Positions 57,252 through 63,226 of a stretch of 64,000 nucleotides of DNA are shown here, piece after piece. The position numbers and the translations under genes are program-made. A model generated the notes under the pieces. That model did no database searches. It was not told the DNA's origin and saw only the letters and a list, made by a program, of their open reading frames with translations. Source of the stretch: Candidatus Methylomirabilota bacterium (GTDB lineage: Bacteria; Acidobacteriota; Thermoanaerobaculia; Thermoanaerobaculales; Sulfomarinibacteraceae); assembly GCA_035464095.1 (NCBI GenBank), contig DATHSO010000150.1:56593-120592 (forward strand). The letters are read 5' to 3'. Every line of letters starts with the position of its first letter. Within the stretch, counting starts at the first letter, position 1.

Positions 57252-57332
57252 ATGGAGGACATTATGGATCGTAAGCCAGTCTACGTCATTCTCGGAGCGA
57301 CCGGCGGCATCGGCTCGGCCTGGCACGATTGA
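57252..57332 (+). pseudogene. 26-codon N-terminal fragment of a short-chain dehydrogenase/reductase
   Basis: MEDIMDRKPVYVILGATGGIGSAWHD* carries the SDR Rossmann motif TGxxxGIG and then stops. Locally lower GC. Confidence 0.5.
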
Positions 57333-57336
57333 TGCA
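57321..57336 (+). promoter_or_regulatory. sigma-54 (-24/-12) promoter candidate upstream of the cNMP-binding gene
   Basis: TGGCACGATTGATGCA versus consensus TGGCACG-N4-TTGCW: correct GG/GC spacing with one mismatch. About 40 nt of leader with an SD before ATG 57387. Confidence 0.6.
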
Positions 57337-57386
57337 CAGGTCATCGGGAGAACCACGACCCACTGACGGGCGGAAAGGAGTCCCAG

Positions 57387-57887
57387 ATGATCCACGATCG
57401 ACTGGACAAGAACGAGGTCTTCCAGTTCCTCGGTCCCGACCAGATCCGGGCCATCAGCGACGCGGCTGAGGTGTTGGAGGTCCCGGCGGGCGAGACCATC
57501 TACCACCAGGGAAGGCCGGCGGACCACTTCTTCGTGGTCCTCAAGGGGCAGGTCTCGCTGCGCCTGCCGGGACGGTCCGGGGTCAGCATCCAGATCGACG
57601 AGCTCAGCGAGGGTGCGGTCTTCGGCTCCTGCGTCTGCTTCCAGCTGGCCACCTACTCGCTCAACGCCCAGTGCACCCGCGACTCCAGCCTGCTCAAGAT
57701 CGACTCGAGGACCCTCAAGGAGATGATGGACGACGACCTCCTGATGGGCTACACGATCCAGACCCAGATCTCGCGGATCTACTTCAAGCGCTACATCGAC
57801 TCCATGAAGAAGCTGCAGTCCCTGGTCATGAACCTCCCCTTGGAGGTCGAGCAGGGCGAGCCCGCGCAGGTGTCCGTCCCCGTCTGA
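57387..57887 (+). CDS. stand-alone cyclic-nucleotide-binding domain protein
   Basis: cNMP-binding beta-roll pattern (FQFLGPDQIRAISDAAEVLEVPAGETIYHQGRPADHFFVVLKG...GAVFG) with no HTH. SD AAAGGAG lies upstream. Confidence 0.75.
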   Translation: MIHDRLDKNEVFQFLGPDQIRAISDAAEVLEVPAGETIYHQGRPADHFFVVLKGQVSLRLPGRSGVSIQIDELSEGAVFGSCVCFQLATYSLNAQCTRDSSLLKIDSRTLKEMMDDDLLMGYTIQTQISRIYFKRYIDSMKKLQSLVMNLPLEVEQGEPAQVSVPV

Positions 57888-58068
57888 CCGCCGGGACGAC
57901 CCGAGACCGGAGTGCAGAAGACGGTCGGGTCGAGCCGGCCGCCGGGTGCCGGTGCGTGCCCTGAGTCGACGAAAGCCCCGTGGCGACCGATAATGAGGGT
58001 ACGCCGAGGACCGGACGGGTCCATCGGCGTCCCCCCGGGAATCCGGGGAGGATCGGCGTCGATGGGCG

Positions 58069-59439
58069 GTGCGCACGATGGTCGACGGCAACTCGGAGGC
58101 GGCGAGGACGATCCTCGACAGCATCAGCGACGGTGTCTTCACCGTCGACCTGAGCTGGCGCATCACCTCGTTCAACCGCGCTGCGGAGCGGATCACCGGT
58201 GTGCCGCGCGAGGAGGCCATCGGCAGCCACTGCTGTGACGTCTTCCGGGCCAACATCTGCGAGCGCGGCTGCGCGGTCCGGGAGACCATCGACACCGGGC
58301 AGCCCATCGTCGGGCTGTCGGTGTACATCATCAACGCGCGCGGGCAGAAGGTGCCCATCAGCATCTCCACCGCCATCCTCGAAAACGAGGTCGGCGAGAT
58401 CGTCGGCGGAGTCGAGACCTTCCGTGACCTGACCCAGGTCGAGCAGCTGCGCAAGGAGATCGAGCGGCGCTACAGCTTCGCCGACATCATCGGCCACAGC
58501 CCGGCGATGCGGCGCTTGTTCGAGCTGCTGCCCATCGTCGCCGACAGCGACAGCACGGTCCTGATCCACGGCGAGAGCGGCACCGGCAAGGAGCTGGTGG
58601 CGCGGGCGATCCACAACCTGTCGCCGCGGCGGAGCAAGCGCTTCGTGGCCATCAACTGCGGTGCGCTGCCCGACACCCTCCTGGAGTCGGAGCTCTTCGG
58701 CCACAAGGCCGGGGCCTTCACCGACGCCCGCAAGGACAAGCCCGGCCGCTTCGCCGCCGCCCAGGGCGGGACCATCCTCCTCGACGAGGTCGGCGACATC
58801 TCGCCGGCGATGCAGGTGCGGCTCCTGAGGGTGCTCCAGGAGCGGGTCTACGAGCCTCTGGGGTCGGTGACGCCGGTCCCCGCGGACGTGCGGGTCGTCA
58901 CCGCAACCCACCACGACCTCCGTGCCCTGGTGGAGAGCGGCCGTTTCCGGGAGGACCTGTTCTACCGGATCAACGTCTTCCGGCTGGACCTGCCGCCCCT
59001 TCGTGACCGGCGCGAGGACATCCCGCTGCTGGTCGAGCACTTCGTGTCGCGGTTCAACGCCATCCAGGGCAAGAACGTCGCCGGGGTCACCGAGGAGGTC
59101 CTCGACGTGCTGATGAGGAGCCCCTTCCCGGGCAACGCGCGCGAGCTCGAGAACGTCGTCGAGCACGCCTTCGTGCTCTGCCAGAGCGGGCTCATCGGCC
59201 TCCACCATCTGCCCAAGGAGATACTGGAGAGCGCCGGCCTGGTGGCGGTGGGCCCGAAGGTGGGTGCAACCCTGAAGTCCATCGAGGCCCTCCACATCGC
59301 CGACGCCCTGCGCCGCCACGAGGGCAACCGCACCGCGGCTGCCGAGGAGCTCGGCATCCACCCGACCACTCTGCGGCGGAAGATCCAGGAGCTGGACATC
59401 GAGGTACCGCCCTTCGACGGCCGCCACAACCCCAGGTAG
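58069..59439 (+). CDS. sigma-54-dependent transcriptional activator with Cys-rich PAS sensor (alternative start ATG 58078)
   Basis: PAS domain (ILDSISDGVFTVD...) containing CCDVFRANICERGC. AAA+ motifs GESGTGKE, GAFTDA and ESELFGH. C-terminal Fis-type HTH AAAEELGIHPTTLRRKI. Confidence 0.9.
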   Translation: MRTMVDGNSEAARTILDSISDGVFTVDLSWRITSFNRAAERITGVPREEAIGSHCCDVFRANICERGCAVRETIDTGQPIVGLSVYIINARGQKVPISISTAILENEVGEIVGGVETFRDLTQVEQLRKEIERRYSFADIIGHSPAMRRLFELLPIVADSDSTVLIHGESGTGKELVARAIHNLSPRRSKRFVAINCGALPDTLLESELFGHKAGAFTDARKDKPGRFAAAQGGTILLDEVGDISPAMQVRLLRVLQERVYEPLGSVTPVPADVRVVTATHHDLRALVESGRFREDLFYRINVFRLDLPPLRDRREDIPLLVEHFVSRFNAIQGKNVAGVTEEVLDVLMRSPFPGNARELENVVEHAFVLCQSGLIGLHHLPKEILESAGLVAVGPKVGATLKSIEALHIADALRRHEGNRTAAAEELGIHPTTLRRKIQELDIEVPPFDGRHNPR

Positions 59440-59571
59440 GAACGCGAGCGATTCGCACTCCTGGCCCGAGCCGGGTCGGTGCGAAACGCGTGCCTCCGCG
59501 AACCCGCCAGCAGCGATCACAGGGTGCTGCGGCACCTCCCGATCGGGCTCGGAGCACGGGGCCCGCACCGC

Positions 59572-59587
59572 TGGCACTGCTGTTGCA
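59572..59587 (+). promoter_or_regulatory. sigma-54 (-24/-12) promoter candidate upstream of the NifX-like/radical SAM/CGGC genes
   Basis: TGGCACTGCTGTTGCA is a full match to TGGCAC-N5-TTGCA. It lies immediately after the sigma-54 activator gene, and the predicted +1 near 59598 is just before ATG 59600. Confidence 0.7.
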
Positions 59588-59599
59588 GGTCTGGTGAGC

Positions 59600-61924: not shown

Positions 61925-61957
61925 GGTGATGCCTCCAATCCGACCCCGTGGCGCCGA

Positions 61958-62287
61958 TCAGGCGTCCTTGGAGCCTCGGCGTTCGGTGATCTTCTGGTGC
62001 GTCGGTGAGCCCTCGCGGACCAGCGCCGAGCCGCACTCGGGGCAGCGCTGGTCGAGGCATGGGTTACCGGGCAGGTGGGGTGCGCGGTGACCGCACTTCG
62101 GGCACAGACAGACGCCGCCGCTGCCGAGGCCTCCACCCTGTCCGCGGCCGCCGCCGCCGCGGCCGCCGCCCATGCCGCCGCCGCGGCCGCCTCCGCCGCC
62201 GCGGCCCATGCCGCCGCCGCCTCCGCCGCCGCCCCCGGGGGCGGCCATCATCCGGGACCTTCTCGGTCCGAGCGTGTCGTCAATCAT
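61958..62287 (-). CDS. Gly/Arg-rich protein with C-terminal zinc ribbon
   Basis: About 45 aa of GGGGMGRGGGGGRGGG repeats followed by CPKCG...CPECG. Confidence 0.55.
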   Translation of the reverse strand: MIDDTLGPRRSRMMAAPGGGGGGGGGMGRGGGGGRGGGMGGGRGGGGRGQGGGLGSGGVCLCPKCGHRAPHLPGNPCLDQRCPECGSALVREGSPTHQKITERRGSKDA

Positions 62288-62319
62288 GTCGATCCTCCGT
62301 AGAGCCGGCGCCGGCCGGC

Positions 62320-62736
62320 TCAGCTGTTGTGGCCGCCGCCGCGGCCGCCGTGGCCTTGGCCGTGGCCGTCATGGTTGTGGCCGCAGTCGTGGAAACTGTG
62401 GTCGTGGCAGACCTCACCCGTCGCCTGGAGCGTGCCGGAGACGTACTGCCGGACCACGGTGTCGGGGTCGGTTCCCTGCACTCCCAGGACGACGTCGATG
62501 CCGTGCTGGGCGAGAATGTCGATGGCGCGGGGCCCCATGCCGCCGGCCAGGATCACCTCCGCGCCCTGGCTCCGCAGCCACATGGGGTAGATGCCCCGAC
62601 CGTGCTCGGGGGGGGAGCCGACCACCCGCTCGGCCACAGTCTGGCTCGCCAGGTCCACGGTGTAGAAGGCGAACGCGTCGGCGCCGCCGAAGTGCTCCGA
62701 GAATCGGCCCTGTTGCAACGGAATCACCACTCGCAT
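62320..62736 (-). CDS. NifX/NifB-C-terminal-like domain protein with His-rich tail
   Basis: N-terminus MRVVIPLQQGRFSEHFGGADAFAFY, then ILAGGMGPRAIDILAQHGIDVV, and tail CHDHSFHDCGHNHDGHGQGHGG. Confidence 0.7.
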   Translation of the reverse strand: MRVVIPLQQGRFSEHFGGADAFAFYTVDLASQTVAERVVGSPPEHGRGIYPMWLRSQGAEVILAGGMGPRAIDILAQHGIDVVLGVQGTDPDTVVRQYVSGTLQATGEVCHDHSFHDCGHNHDGHGQGHGGRGGGHNS

Positions 62737-62775
62737 GTCGTCATTCCTCCTTTGTCTGTCCTGTGTCTGTCCTGC

Positions 62776-63180
62776 TCACCGCGGGCCGTGCCCGCGACCG
62801 TGTCCGTTGCCCGCGCCGCGGCAACGGCAGCCACGCCCCCGCCGACCCCCGCCGTCGTGCACCGGGCAGGGGAGCGGGCGCTCTGGGCCGGCCGCCACCA
62901 CCGGGCCTTCGCTGACGACGAGGAGGCGCTCCTCGACGATCGCTCGGGCGACCGCAACCCGGGCGCGGGCGAGGATGCGGGCGAAGGTGGGCCGCGAGAC
63001 CCCCATCCGCTCGGCGGCGACCTCCTGGTAGAGACCCTCGAGATCGGCCAGCCGCAGCGCCTCGAGCTCGTCGAGGCGGAGCGCCTCGACCTCGAGCTCG
63101 CCGGCCGGGCGGCCGATGGGCTTGAAGGCCCTGCCGCCAGCCACGCATCCGACCTGTCTGAGCTTCTCGGGCCGTGCCAT
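62776..63180 (-). CDS. DUF134 (UPF0251) putative DNA-binding protein
   Basis: Motifs FKPIGRPAGELEVEALRLDELEALRLADLEGLYQEVAAERMGVSRPTFARIL, with a Cys/His/Gly-rich tail. Confidence 0.7.
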   Translation of the reverse strand: MARPEKLRQVGCVAGGRAFKPIGRPAGELEVEALRLDELEALRLADLEGLYQEVAAERMGVSRPTFARILARARVAVARAIVEERLLVVSEGPVVAAGPERPLPCPVHDGGGRRGRGCRCRGAGNGHGRGHGPR

Positions 63181-63197
63181 CGCGCCTCCCAGTTACG

Positions 63198-63226
63198 AAC
63201 ATATGCTCATTACGGGTCGATGTCAA
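63198..63226 (-). promoter_or_regulatory. sigma-70-like promoter for the DUF134 operon
   Basis: Minus strand reads TTGACA - 17 nt - TATGTT, followed by SD GGGAGG and ATG 63180. Confidence 0.55.

Follow-up and report, generated by a model that had tools for sequence, protein, structure and literature searches.

The gene cluster between positions 57,321 and 63,226 of the window, i.e. the whole 64-kb stretch of Methylomirabilota MAG DNA analysed here, probably represents a pared-down form of the ORP (orange protein) gene cluster found in anaerobic bacteria, with a sigma-54 activator of the OrpR family as its regulator. We infer with good confidence that it is regulated as an ORP-type cluster, and its activator is very probably a redox sensor that operates via an iron-sulfur cluster; the proposed biochemistry is the handling of inorganic metal-sulfur species. 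In Desulfovibrio vulgaris the orp operons are controlled by OrpR, a sigma-54 activator that senses redox state through a [4Fe-4S] cluster, and the core of the ORP operon, as the literature terms it, comprises two ATPases and ORP itself; to our knowledge, no function has been established for ORP proteins, even in Desulfovibrio. The first-pass annotation had described a sigma-54-wired cluster of metal- and redox-themed proteins with no assigned function. The observation itself is confirmed, with all listed sequence features present in the window, and the interpretation is partly supported. The locus does have published relatives, namely OrpR and the Desulfovibrio ORP cluster (PMC8359166, PMC6345978, PMC3897727); at the biochemical level, "function unknown" is still fair.

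The activator gene (ORF 58069/58078-59439, + strand) encodes a PAS, a Sigma54_activat (E=4e-68) and a HTH_8 domain according to profile searches, and translation from the ATG at 58078 yields a 453-aa enhancer-binding protein (58078..59439) that is 100% identical to P0001. Its PAS domain carries the motif HCCDVFRANICERGC with the residues C52, C53, D54, C61 and C65, and its AAA+ domain the GAFTDA motif. The pattern C-x-[DE]-x6-C-x3-C is kept in all 120 best homologs of the activator and GAFTDA in 115 of them. The assignment to OrpR is based on published residue numbers, motif and gene context: the cysteines and the aspartate occupy residue numbers identical to those of the published OrpR (C52, C61, C65 and D/E54; PMC8359166), and GAFTDA is shared with DVU2106 (PMC4641369). 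The regulatory architecture has been experimentally established in Desulfovibrio, where redox potential is the signal and is sensed by a PAS-bound [4Fe-4S] cluster (PMC8359166, PMC6345978, PMC3897727). By homology, the PAS domain of the window would assemble a [4Fe-4S] cluster on C52, C61, C65 and D54, plus the extra C53, release the AAA+ domain at low redox potential and block activation when oxidation damages the cluster. A scan with this PAS domain retrieved at least 597 species from many phyla; a further search returned Desulfonatronovibrio and no Desulfovibrio.

The additional C53 is invariant in the subfamily of the window's activator and lies outside the fully conserved residues of the published OrpR alignment (PMC8359166). 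It would be compatible with a non-redox signal, for instance a metal, sulfide or reactive sulfur species perceived at the cysteines, or a relay by the cNMP-like partner. The latter is a stand-alone cNMP-binding-fold protein of 166 aa (57387..57887, +; cNMP_binding PF00027, E=1e-16) without a DNA-binding domain, whose C82, C84 and C96 are conserved in the region of the phosphate-binding cassette in an alignment with L083 and L084. Its Cys-bearing gene adjoins the activator gene in all close relatives examined, where it lies upstream, on the activator's strand in L083, L084 and L085 and on the opposite one in the P0010 contig; moreover, FisR, another sigma-54 activator, senses reactive sulfur via cysteine (PMC12754779). 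However, the ligand spacing is exactly that of OrpR and the regulated gene families are those of the OrpR regulon, and we regard a signal other than redox potential as quite unlikely.

The cluster contains two predicted sigma-54 promoters. The perfect site P2 (TGGCACTGCTGTTGCA, 59572..59587, +) precedes the first NifX-like gene and is the sole exact match to TGGCAC-N5-TTGCA in 64 kb, and none of 100 shuffles contains one. Its predicted transcription start (~59598) is located just 2 nt 5' of the ATG at 59600. P1 (TGGCACGATTGATGCA, 57321..57336, +), with the -12 element ATGCA, lies 5' of the cNMP-like gene, and its predicted start at ~57347 leaves a 40-nt leader with the ribosome-binding site GGAAAGGAG. 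If one mismatch is allowed, the window harbors three sites versus 0.87 expected, and the candidate at 57321 is weakly supported by counts alone because 8 of 100 shuffles reach this number; P1 and P2 are conserved islands in the diverged relatives L083 to L085. The P1 form TGGCACG-N4-RTGCA precedes the orthologous cNMP-like gene in L083 (9376), L084 (9030) and L085 (9260), and its flanks have diverged. In 30 of 50 loci, versus 1.0 expected, the 127 nt 5' of the activator-following NifX-like gene contain a site that matches 9 or more of the 11 promoter positions.

Upstream of P2, a candidate activating sequence (59446..59491, +) consists of two inverted copies, GAGCGATTCGCAC (59446-59458) and GTGCGAAACGCGT (59479-59491), which form an inverted repeat (11 nt, 91%) with centres 33 bp apart, 80-125 bp upstream of the -24 element. 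The pair is kept in L083 and L084. Loci of other phyla likewise have TTGCA-N3-TGCAA sites in pairs at the same place, spaced by 32-33 bp (21 of 44 loci versus 4.8 in shuffles). No IHF consensus was found between these sites and P2, and the search for an activator site of P1 identified none. The window also harbors rpoN itself (12132..13619, +) in its usual lpt-rpoN-hpf-ptsN-hprK-rapZ neighbourhood; conserved promoters, the enhancer-like site pair, the adjacent activator and rpoN all support the sigma-54 wiring recognized in the first-pass annotation. The visible architecture suggests that the activator, if bound to the inverted sites, would remodel sigma-54 RNA polymerase at 59572-59587 and that P2 would yield a transcript with hardly any leader that encodes NifX-like protein 1, the radical SAM enzyme and the CGGC protein. 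The conserved P1 would drive the cNMP-like gene, and its transcripts probably extend into the activator gene. Besides this read-through, the activator gene may have its own sigma-70-like promoter, a candidate being the element TCGACG-17-GATAAT (57966..57994, +), a consensus match only, which is kept in L083, not in L084 or L085.

NifX-like protein 1 (132 aa; 59600..59998, +; ORF 59594/59600) matches Nitro_FeMo-Co (PF02579) with 30.4 bits versus a cutoff of 26.3 and MTH1175 with E=0.004; its tail is Arg-rich (28% R, net +6), and in 57 of 78 loci its ortholog is the gene directly 3' of the activator. The adjacent gene encodes a radical SAM enzyme of the COG0731 type (341 aa; 60035..61060, +; Radical_SAM) with a single CX3CX2C cluster motif (C32, C36, C39), an invariant HxxxPxRPPxE and a winged-helix-like C-terminal domain (about residues 257-313). 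Its homologs are named "wyosine synthetase" (= COG0731) by JGI, and the score with the TYW1 model (26.9 bits versus a cutoff of 318) argues against an identity as TYW1. The best folds retrieved with its AF2 model (pLDDT 79.4) are the PFL-activating enzyme (4.9e-10), NifB (6.6e-10) and viperin, all with a TM of about 0.5. The third gene encodes a Cys-rich CGGC-domain protein (145 aa; 61145..61582, +; PF08821, E=7e-28) and is present in 7 of 51 activator-linked clusters, mostly adjoining MinD-type Fe-S ATPases.

NifB itself combines a radical SAM and a NifX-like domain in one protein. A nitrogenase-independent NifB-like pathway would have the radical SAM enzyme remodel an Fe-S precursor on the adjacent NifX-like carrier; the two genes adjoin in L084 and L085 as well as in the window, five other loci have the radical SAM gene placed between both Fe-S ATPase genes, and NifB structures take ranks 2, 5 and 7-9 of the fold search. 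The fold match is generic, however, because the PFL-activating enzyme and viperin score equally (TM about 0.5). The enzyme has no NifB family match in NCBIfam, it conserves CX3CX2C only and not the auxiliary K-cluster ligands, and just 18% of the clusters carry its gene; we consider such a pathway decidedly improbable. The reported lack of nitrogenase genes holds, as Pfam scans detected none among the window's about 55 probable genes (GC3-filtered ORFs).

The converging operon starts with the DUF134 gene (134 aa; 62776..63180, -; PF02001, E=1e-17, with additional HTH and sigma-70 region 4 matches), whose product has a Cys/His/Arg-rich C-terminal tail that is kept in L084. NifX-like protein 2 (138 aa; 62320..62736, -; PF02579, E=2e-16) is of the ORP/TM1816 type and matches the C-terminal (Di-Nase) domain of MrpORP (88 bits), TM1816 (6e-15), PH0822 and the D. 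gigas ORP 2wfb (2.5e-4); its tail is expanded and Cys/His-rich, versus the usual N-x-C-D-H ending. The Gly/Arg-rich zinc-ribbon protein (109 aa; 61958..62287, -) combines an N-terminus of 57% Gly and 12% Arg with the C-terminal pattern C-x-C-P-x-C-G-H...H...PC...C-P-x-C-G; its family is conserved in 20 loci, and one of the members hits the DUF5320 profile in the profile's N-terminal half (E=2e-4). The DUF5320 protein (110 aa; 61592..61924, -; PF17253, E=6e-17) exhibits 38% Gly, 10% Arg, 10% Trp and a net charge of +5 in its N-terminal 60 residues, followed by an acidic, predicted helical C-terminus. Profile searches upheld every previous domain call of the cluster, with sub-threshold matches only for the zinc ribbon, and placed the divergently transcribed permease (from 63389) in CitMHS, a family of the ArsB/NhaD-type transporter superfamily.

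The sigma-70-like promoter TTGACA (63226-63221)-17-TATGTT (63226-63198, -) 5' of DUF134 agrees with the proposed sigma-70-type transcription of this operon. It is overlapped by the palindrome GAACATATGCTC (63197-63208; whole feature 63197..63226); TTGACA is kept in both L084 and L085, the former with the perfect palindrome GAACATATGTTC. This conserved architecture suggests that DUF134, NifX-like protein 2, the zinc ribbon and DUF5320 are read from this promoter, and DUF134 probably regulates its own operon.

The composition of these proteins also invites a comparison with IssA-like storage, in which Fe and S would mainly be kept as an anionic thioferrate-type polymer, nucleated by the NifX-like domain and wrapped by cationic Gly/Arg/Trp-rich segments that DUF5320 and the zinc-ribbon protein would provide in trans. 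Pyrococcus IssA responds to sulfur and iron and not to a sigma-54/OrpR switch, however, and we know of no report of thioferrate in ORP proteins. The IssA tail is described as rich in Gly, Arg and aromatic residues, the key ones being Trp, Gly and Arg (PMC5524996), and the N-termini of DUF5320 and the zinc-ribbon protein resemble it in composition. NifX-like protein 1 is nearest to MTH1175, a member of the IssA clade (PMC5524996). In activator-linked clusters, some NifX-like domains furthermore extend into long Gly/Arg/Met tails (L014, L034, L048, L063), and L022 and L086 have fusions of NifX-like domains with zinc ribbons. But the likeness is compositional only, the MTH1175 match is weak, and the tail of NifX-like protein 1 is short and neither Gly- nor aromatic-rich; storage of the IssA type is unlikely. 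For the ORP-type cluster we hypothesize that its products hold and hand on inorganic metal-sulfur species under reducing conditions, either Fe-S or an orange-protein-like thiometallate; the NifX-like domains would serve as carriers, and anions and metals would bind to the Gly/Arg/Trp-rich segments and the Cys/His tails.

The predicted co-occurrence of the gene families was recovered across many phyla. Among 51 loci with 6 kb or more of sequence behind the activator, NifX-like genes were found in 82%, DUF5320 in 59%, MinD-Fer4 ATPases in 57%, the zinc ribbon in 31%, radical SAM in 18% and CGGC in 14%. The activator is typically followed by a NifX-like gene and then by DUF5320, a Gly/Arg zinc ribbon, two Orp3/4-like Fe-S ATPases of the MinD type and further NifX-like genes; radical SAM, CGGC, DUF89 and MBL genes are recurrent accessories, and DUF134 genes too recur beside the same activator. 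Most genomes harbor these families in one co-directional operon behind the activator (dozens of genomes), which argues against the previous separation of the two converging units into different themes. An accidental neighbourhood, with unrelated sigma-54 and DUF134 operons or chance promoter matches and a tRNA wyosine (TYW1) enzyme as radical SAM protein, might be read from the convergent units, the one-mismatch promoter count, which is not significant alone, and the JGI name. It is largely refuted by the comparative data and extremely improbable: the same families are co-directional in dozens of genomes, the promoters are conserved amid diverged sequence, and the convergent layout itself, including the DUF134-NifX-...-DUF5320 unit, is kept in L084 and L085.

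Two MinD-type Fe-S ATPases and a Mrp-type carrier are absent from the searched 64-kb window, and the canonical ORP complex therefore cannot form from its genes alone. The fullest relative, L085, has its genes laid out exactly as in the window and carries in addition a ferredoxin, one more NifX-like gene, two ATPases and DUF89, all of which the window lacks; the window retains the DUF134-led sigma-70 sub-operon and the Cys-bearing cNMP-like partner gene. The palindrome of DvH (GGGCGYRTTTTGCGCCC) is unlike the candidate activator sites of the window in sequence. The place of the zinc-ribbon family before two ATPase genes corresponds to the orp5-orp4-orp3 arrangement. The switch is known from Desulfovibrio, and what is new here is the slimmed-down layout of a poorly understood system.

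The locus at 57321–63226 is a variant of the known ORP/OrpR system, i.e., of the orange protein (ORP) gene cluster of Desulfovibrio and its sigma-54 activator OrpR (DVU2106). Within the window, whose G+C content amounts to 71%, it comprises nine genes arranged as two converging sets. The forward set encodes a stand-alone protein with a cNMP-binding fold (57387–57887), a PAS-AAA+-HTH_8 sigma-54 activator (58078–59439; the ORF opens at GTG 58069, and the database protein begins at ATG 58078), NifX-like 1 with a weak Nitro_FeMo-Co match (59600–59998), a radical SAM protein (60035–61060) and a CGGC protein (61145–61582). 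The minus strand encodes a DUF134 protein (62776–63180), NifX-like 2 with a strong Nitro_FeMo-Co match and a His-rich tail (62320–62736), a Gly/Arg-rich zinc ribbon (61958–62287) and a DUF5320 protein (61592–61924). The cNMP-like, NifX-like, radical SAM, CGGC, DUF5320 and DUF134 proteins were assigned with Pfam, and profile searches bore out all the Pfam domains that the first-pass annotation had named. The permease gene divergent from the DUF134 unit belongs to the CitMHS family (Pfam). The rpoN gene lies in the same window, as that annotation had also stated, at 12132–13619 in its usual lpt-rpoN-hpf-ptsN-hprK-rapZ context (Pfam). Pfam scans of about 55 GC3-filtered ORFs retrieved housekeeping genes and no nitrogenase genes (including nifHDKEN) in the window, which agrees with the earlier reading; a nitrogenase context was dismissed because such genes are missing among the probable genes of the window. 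A comparison of the whole window with Rfam gave zero matches. A gene for a Rex-type redox repressor (Put_DNA-bind_N and CoA_binding) is located at 42621–43310, 15 kb upstream of the cluster.

The MrpORP NCBIfam match of NifX-like 2 pointed to the ORP system of Desulfovibrio vulgaris. OrpR is a PAS-AAA+-HTH sigma-54 activator encoded between two sigma-54-driven orp operons, and it binds palindromic sites (PMC8359166). The 453-aa activator of the window, 100% identical to a database protein of a Methylomirabilota MAG, has the same three-domain architecture of N-terminal PAS, AAA+ and C-terminal HTH, with PAS_9/PAS_4 at residues 16–125, Sigma54_activat at 140–306 (E=4e-68), AAA_lid_14, and HTH_8 at 402–441. 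The [4Fe-4S] cluster of OrpR needs C52, C61 and C65, and the protein has a conserved Asp/Glu at position 54 (PMC8359166); by these published residue numbers the window activator carries the Cys triad and the acidic residue (C52, C53, D54, C61, C65). The motif C-x-[DE]-x6-C-x3-C is kept in all 120 best listed homologs, and the PAS consensus CCDVFRASICE is unusually conserved (79% mean column identity). GAFTDA, the loop variant of DVU2106 (PMC4641369), is found in the window activator and in 115 of the 120 best listed homologs. The cognate sigma-54 promoters adjoin the activator gene and precede orp-type genes, as described for OrpR. Since published residue numbers, motif and gene context agree, the activator is of the OrpR type, a likeness drawn from these correspondences rather than from a direct alignment with DVU2106. 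A redox-sensitive [4Fe-4S] cluster sits in the PAS domain of OrpR (DVU2106), whose activity requires a low redox potential (PMC8359166). A homolog search queried from a Desulfonatronovibrio locus retrieved Desulfonatronovibrio species and no Desulfovibrio vulgaris among the matches listed. Among the sigma-54 activators described, OrpR is to our knowledge the only one that senses through an Fe-S PAS domain; we know of no biochemical function for the ORP system, which has been known for more than ten years.

Two sigma-54 promoters serve the forward set, P1 at 57321 in front of the cNMP-like gene and P2 at 59572 in front of NifX-like 1. The P2 sequence TGGCACTGCTGTTGCA is the sole exact TGGCAC-N5-TTGCA in the window, and none of 100 shuffles had one; with one mismatch allowed, three sites compare with 0.87 expected, a count that is not significant on its own. 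The reality of both promoters is nevertheless settled by their conservation in the three close relatives L083, L084 and L085. The activators of these loci are 73–85% identical to that of the window and the intergenic DNA has diverged, with both promoters persisting as islands; scored scans found TGGCACG-N4-RTGCA before the cNMP-like gene and TGGCAC-N5-TTGCA before NifX-like 1. The third one-mismatch site of the window, TGGCCCGCGCGTTGCT at 2124–2139 on the minus strand, lies inside the unannotated ORF region 1794–2681 and is probably a chance match. Across many phyla, 30 of 50 loci carry a site that fits 9 or more of the 11 positions in the 127 nt preceding the first NifX-like gene behind the activator, compared with 1.0 in random windows of the same loci. 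Counted from P2 to the start codon of NifX-like 1 (59572–59602), the distance is 31 nt, and it is 31–36 nt in about half of the loci with a clear promoter (L005–L082). This places the predicted transcription start 2–7 nt before the ATG, so the NifX-like 1 mRNA would be leaderless or nearly so. In L085, five strong sigma-54 sites occur within 13 kb around the activator gene (8445, 8657, 9260, 11486 and 20946) and a sixth at 3591; one of the sites in this locus precedes an additional NifX-like gene that lies ahead of the cNMP-like gene.

An 11-nt inverted repeat upstream of P2 (GCGATTCGCAC, 59448–59458; GTGCGAAACGC, 59479–59489; centres 33 bp apart) is kept in L083 and L084. Paired TTGCA-N3-TGCAA palindromes, 32–33 bp apart and at the same promoter distance, recur in planctomycete and other loci, and this pattern was detected in 21 of 44 loci versus 4.8 in shuffles. 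The repeat pair has the form expected of an enhancer, and we regard its halves as candidate sites for the adjacent activator. A palindrome pair about 100 bp upstream of the promoter is an architecture shared with OrpR, but the letters differ: the 17-bp imperfect palindrome GGGCGYRTTTTGCGCCC of OrpR is not matched, and the window sites read GAGCGATTCGCAC and GTGCGAAACGCGT. Between the activator sites and P2, no IHF consensus was found within two mismatches, and nothing convincing was detected in the window as an activator site for P1; L084 carries a single TTGCAAATTGCAA, 270 bp ahead of the corresponding promoter. A sigma-70-like candidate precedes the activator gene (57966–57994) and is kept in L083; in Desulfovibrio, orpR also has a sigma-70 promoter (PMC3897727). 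The converging unit starts with a sigma-70-like TTGACA-17-TATGTT before DUF134, whose -35 hexamer is kept in L084 and L085. Its -10 region is overlapped by the palindrome GAACATATGCTC (63197–63208, minus strand), at the position of which L084 has a perfect GAACATATGTTC. The palindrome is likely an operator, perhaps for DUF134 itself.

The distribution of this regulator was explored with a PAS-alignment scan of one genome per species, in which at least 597 species were confirmed as related; the analysis continued with the best 80 loci. These loci represent Planctomycetota, Desulfobacterota, Acidobacteriota, Zixibacteria, Ignavibacteria, Gemmatimonadota, Nitrospirales, Kiritimatiellia, Spirochaetales, a Desulfofundulus and several candidate phyla. 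The regulator signature beside ORP-type genes, in at least 597 species, spans Planctomycetota, Acidobacteriota, Zixibacteria, Ignavibacteria, Methylomirabilota and others. The literature suggested that OrpR occurs only in delta-Proteobacteria (PMC8359166); the occurrence of an OrpR-like signature in many phyla shows that this published limit is too narrow.

A homolog of NifX-like 1 begins about 200 bp past the activator gene in 57 of 78 of the best loci listed. Clustering of all ORFs, with representatives checked against Pfam, revealed a typical order of activator, NifX-like, an optional second NifX-like, DUF5320, Gly/Arg zinc ribbon, two MinD-type ATPases with two ferredoxin motifs each, NifX-like and accessory genes. 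Frequencies come from the 51 loci whose sequence extends 6 kb or more past the activator: NifX-like proteins are present in 82%, DUF5320 in 59%, the ATPases in 57%, the zinc ribbon in 31%, an MBL fold in 20%, radical SAM in 18%, a PaaI-type thioesterase in 16%, and DUF89 and CGGC in 14% each. The cluster ATPases correspond to Orp3/Orp4. The orp genes run in the order small Cys protein, ATPase, ATPase (orp5-orp4-orp3; PMC6345978, PMC8359166), and the zinc ribbon directly precedes the two ATPase genes in many loci, a correspondence of gene order. The first-pass annotation had predicted that these gene families co-occur across genomes, which holds beside the same activator type, and it was right about the sigma-54 wiring, given the two promoters kept in L083–L085 and the enhancer-like repeat upstream of P2. 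Its observation is thus confirmed, but it knew no named relatives of the locus and missed ORP/OrpR, which are published.

The closest full relative among the matches listed is L085, a locus of Thermoanaerobaculales with 73% activator identity. Its order is NifX-like, cNMP-like, activator, NifX-like 1, radical SAM, ferredoxin, NifX-like, ATPase, ATPase, CGGC and DUF89, faced by a converging unit of DUF134, NifX-like and DUF5320. The window follows this layout but has no ferredoxin, one NifX-like gene fewer, neither ATPase and no DUF89, which makes it a reduced member of the sublineage; only 85 bp separate its radical SAM and CGGC genes. A tblastn search with one cluster ATPase found no cluster-type MinD ATPase (two [4Fe-4S] motifs, Orp3/Orp4) in the 64-kb window, where the only ParA-type gene (23004–24017) encodes a parAB partition ATPase. 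MBL, DUF89 and PaaI cluster genes are likewise missing from the 64 kb, and neither Di-Nase protein is fused to a Mrp/NBP35-type carrier as in MrpORP/Orp9, there being no adjacent P-loop domain. The converging DUF134 unit occurs in L084 as well, together with the cNMP-like and radical SAM genes; the activator of this locus is 78% identical. Two features set the sublineage apart, the cNMP-like partner and a separate sigma-70 operon headed by DUF134.

The neighborhood of the cluster varies. In L084 (1598–8626) and on the contig of P0010, a database protein from another close relative, the cNMP-like/activator pair adjoins DsrMKJOP- or Hmc-like genes (NrfD, Fer4_11, multihaem cytochrome c3, CCG, Nitrate_red_gam), and in L084 a perfect divergent sigma-54 promoter at 8672 on the minus strand is aimed at them. 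The window holds a DUF5619-ABC-FtsX-CrtC set at this place. The cluster is flanked by AhpC-TSA peroxiredoxin genes in L084 (13231–13944) and L085 (18690–19373), where each was called as two neighboring fragments; the window has none.

The two PF02579 proteins of the window are single-domain Di-Nase proteins like the orange protein. NifX-like 2 matches TM1816 (6e-15), PH0822 and the ORP of D. gigas (2wfb; 2.5e-4), and it scores 88 bits with the MrpORP model, covering the C-terminal Di-Nase part only (positions 265–365); NifX-like 1 matches MTH1175 weakly (0.004). The usual NifX-like 2 ending N-x-C-D-H is expanded to a Cys/His-rich tail in the window and L084. The DUF5320 protein has "MPGHDGTGP" at its N-terminus together with a segment rich in Gly, Arg and Trp (38% G, 10% R, 10% W, net +5), and its acidic C-terminus is predicted to be helical. 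The zinc-ribbon family, whose HMM was built from the C-terminal ribbon only, starts with "MPRGDGTGP" and Gly/Arg and has the conserved end C-x-C-P-x-C-G-H...H...PC...C-P-x-C-G. A zinc-ribbon member matches positions 1–52 of the DUF5320 profile (E=2e-4), and the "MP(R/G)xDGTGP" plus Gly/Arg module is common to both (window, L017, L044). Judged by their sequences, the two proteins look like two C-terminal heads, a coiled coil and a Cys ribbon, on one shared module. In Desulfonatronovibrio, a NifX-like domain, a Gly-rich linker and the zinc ribbon are fused into one protein of 240 aa (L022, 4679–5401; L086, 9599–10321), and NifX-like domains with long Gly/Arg/Met tails occur in the activator-linked clusters L014 (16362–16913), L034, L048 and L063.

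Two further proteins have conspicuous Cys residues. The C-terminal 39 residues of DUF134 (62779–62895, minus strand) form a Cys/His/Arg/Gly-rich tail, PLPCPVHDGGGRRGRGCRCRGAGNGHGRGHGPR, whose C-x-x-H and C-x-C are kept in L084; the DUF134 proteins of L076 and L081 lack it. The tail may sense a metal or cluster. Aligned by hand with the canonical FGE...PR[ST]A, the cNMP-like protein seems to be devoid of the Glu and Arg that are usual in the phosphate-binding cassette (FGSCVCFQLATYSLNAQC); C82, C84 and C96 stand there instead, and L083 and L084 share all three. The protein lacks a DNA-binding domain, and each of the four closest relatives listed has its gene beside that of the activator (on the opposite strand on the P0010 contig). 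Its ligand may be a metal or cluster and not a cyclic nucleotide, and it may modulate the activator.

The radical SAM protein has a single invariant CX3CX2C (C32, C36, C39), no other invariant Cys, and an invariant H207-P211-R213-P214-P215-E217. Its AF2 model (pLDDT 79.4, pTM 0.81) consists of a partial TIM barrel and a C-terminal helix-helix-helix-strand-strand domain. Foldseek retrieved PFL-activating enzyme (4.9e-10), NifB (6.6e-10) and viperin together at a TM of about 0.5, and on this model the fold match is generic. No useful PDB sequence matches were found for the radical SAM, CGGC and DUF134 proteins. JGI names the homologs "wyosine synthetase" (COG0731). The assignment as TYW1 was rejected (TIGR03972, 26.9 bits versus a cutoff of 317.95), and MoaA, viperin and PFL-activating enzyme were discarded with scores far below the curated cutoffs. 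NifB was rejected as well: no NifB model is among the NCBIfam hits, the K-cluster ligands are absent, and the fold is no closer to NifB than to PFL-activating enzyme or viperin.

We propose that, at low redox potential, the Fe-S-loaded activator would bind at 59446–59491 and activate the sigma-54 polymerase at 59572, leading to the expression of NifX-like 1, the radical SAM enzyme and the CGGC protein. P1 would drive the cNMP-like gene and possibly the activator gene, which would also be read from its own sigma-70-like promoter at 57966–57994. The DUF134 operon would be sigma-70-driven and probably autoregulated at its palindrome. This regulatory part has good support for the window. For the biochemical part we hypothesize that the cluster products carry or store inorganic metal-sulfur species under reducing conditions. 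A more far-reaching reading, which we consider improbable, would make the ORP-type clusters a widespread nitrogenase-independent system that builds, stores or hands over an inorganic metal-sulfur polyanion (thioferrate-like Fe-S or thiometallate). The NifX-like domains would be its carriers, the "MPRGDGTGP + Gly/Arg/aromatic" module would act in trans as an IssA-type wrapping tail, and the COG0731 radical SAM enzyme would perform NifB-like cluster chemistry; the window would be the minimal ATPase-free form, expressed only at low redox potential. The comparisons across loci narrow the hypotheses on what ORP proteins handle; the window itself overturns nothing and leaves the function unrevealed.

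TYW1, the 4-demethylwyosine synthase, is the archetype of COG0731. The radical SAM protein of the window shares its COG (JGI) and the partial TIM-barrel fold, with 2yx0 as number 19 in the fold search, but it differs by the missing second cluster motif, by a C-terminal winged-helix-like domain and by its setting in metal-cluster operons rather than tRNA-modification contexts. NifB, NifX and NafY resemble the locus in the Nitro_FeMo-Co domains, in a radical SAM gene beside a NifX-like gene and in a comparable radical SAM core fold (NifB). The differences are that nifHDKEN are missing from the window, that the radical SAM protein, of the COG0731 type, has a single cluster motif, and that the nearest matches of the NifX-like proteins are TM1816, PH0822, ORP and MTH1175 instead of NifX or NafY. 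NifB-like cluster chemistry, a sharper version of the metal-sulfur hypothesis, has a low probability in our view.

Another sharper version is storage as by IssA, the thioferrate iron-sulfur storage protein of Pyrococcus furiosus. Its tail is described as abounding in Gly, Arg and aromatic residues, and the anionic thioferrate is bound mainly through Trp, Gly and Arg (PMC5524996). Shared with the locus are the association of an IPR003731/NifX-like domain with cationic, Gly-rich, Trp/aromatic disordered sequence and the link to an anaerobic, sulfide-rich lifestyle; the module common to DUF5320 and the Cys-rich zinc ribbon resembles the IssA tail in composition. In contrast to the single polypeptide of IssA, the Gly/Arg/Trp-rich segments reside on the separate DUF5320 and zinc-ribbon proteins and not on a NifX-like tail, that of NifX-like 1 being Arg-rich and poor in Gly and aromatics (32 aa) and that of NifX-like 2 His-rich and acidic. 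Regulation is of the sigma-54/OrpR type, and the likeness is one of composition. We assign this storage reading a low probability too, and retain the general metal-sulfur hypothesis.

The ORP system of Desulfovibrio vulgaris Hildenborough (DVU2103–DVU2109) differs from the locus in having the MinD-type Fe-S ATPases Orp3/Orp4 and the MrpORP carrier, and in its divergent operons, which are co-directional or converging in the window. The window adds the radical SAM and CGGC proteins, the DUF134 regulator and the cNMP-fold partner, has other site letters, no IHF consensus and an extra Cys at position 53, and its host is a Methylomirabilota MAG, outside the delta-Proteobacteria to which OrpR was described as restricted (PMC8359166). 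Both systems have in common the PAS-AAA+-HTH activator with Cys 52/61/65, acidic 54 and GAFTDA, two sigma-54 promoters flanking its gene, paired palindromic upstream sites, a sigma-70-type candidate before the activator, and NifX/Di-Nase and small Cys-rich proteins among the regulated genes. The comparison widens the range of OrpR-type regulators beyond the delta-Proteobacteria, defines radical SAM, CGGC, DUF89 and MBL-fold proteins as recurrent accessories of ORP clusters, and presents the window as a natural ATPase-free version of the system with a minimal gene set that is testable in vitro.
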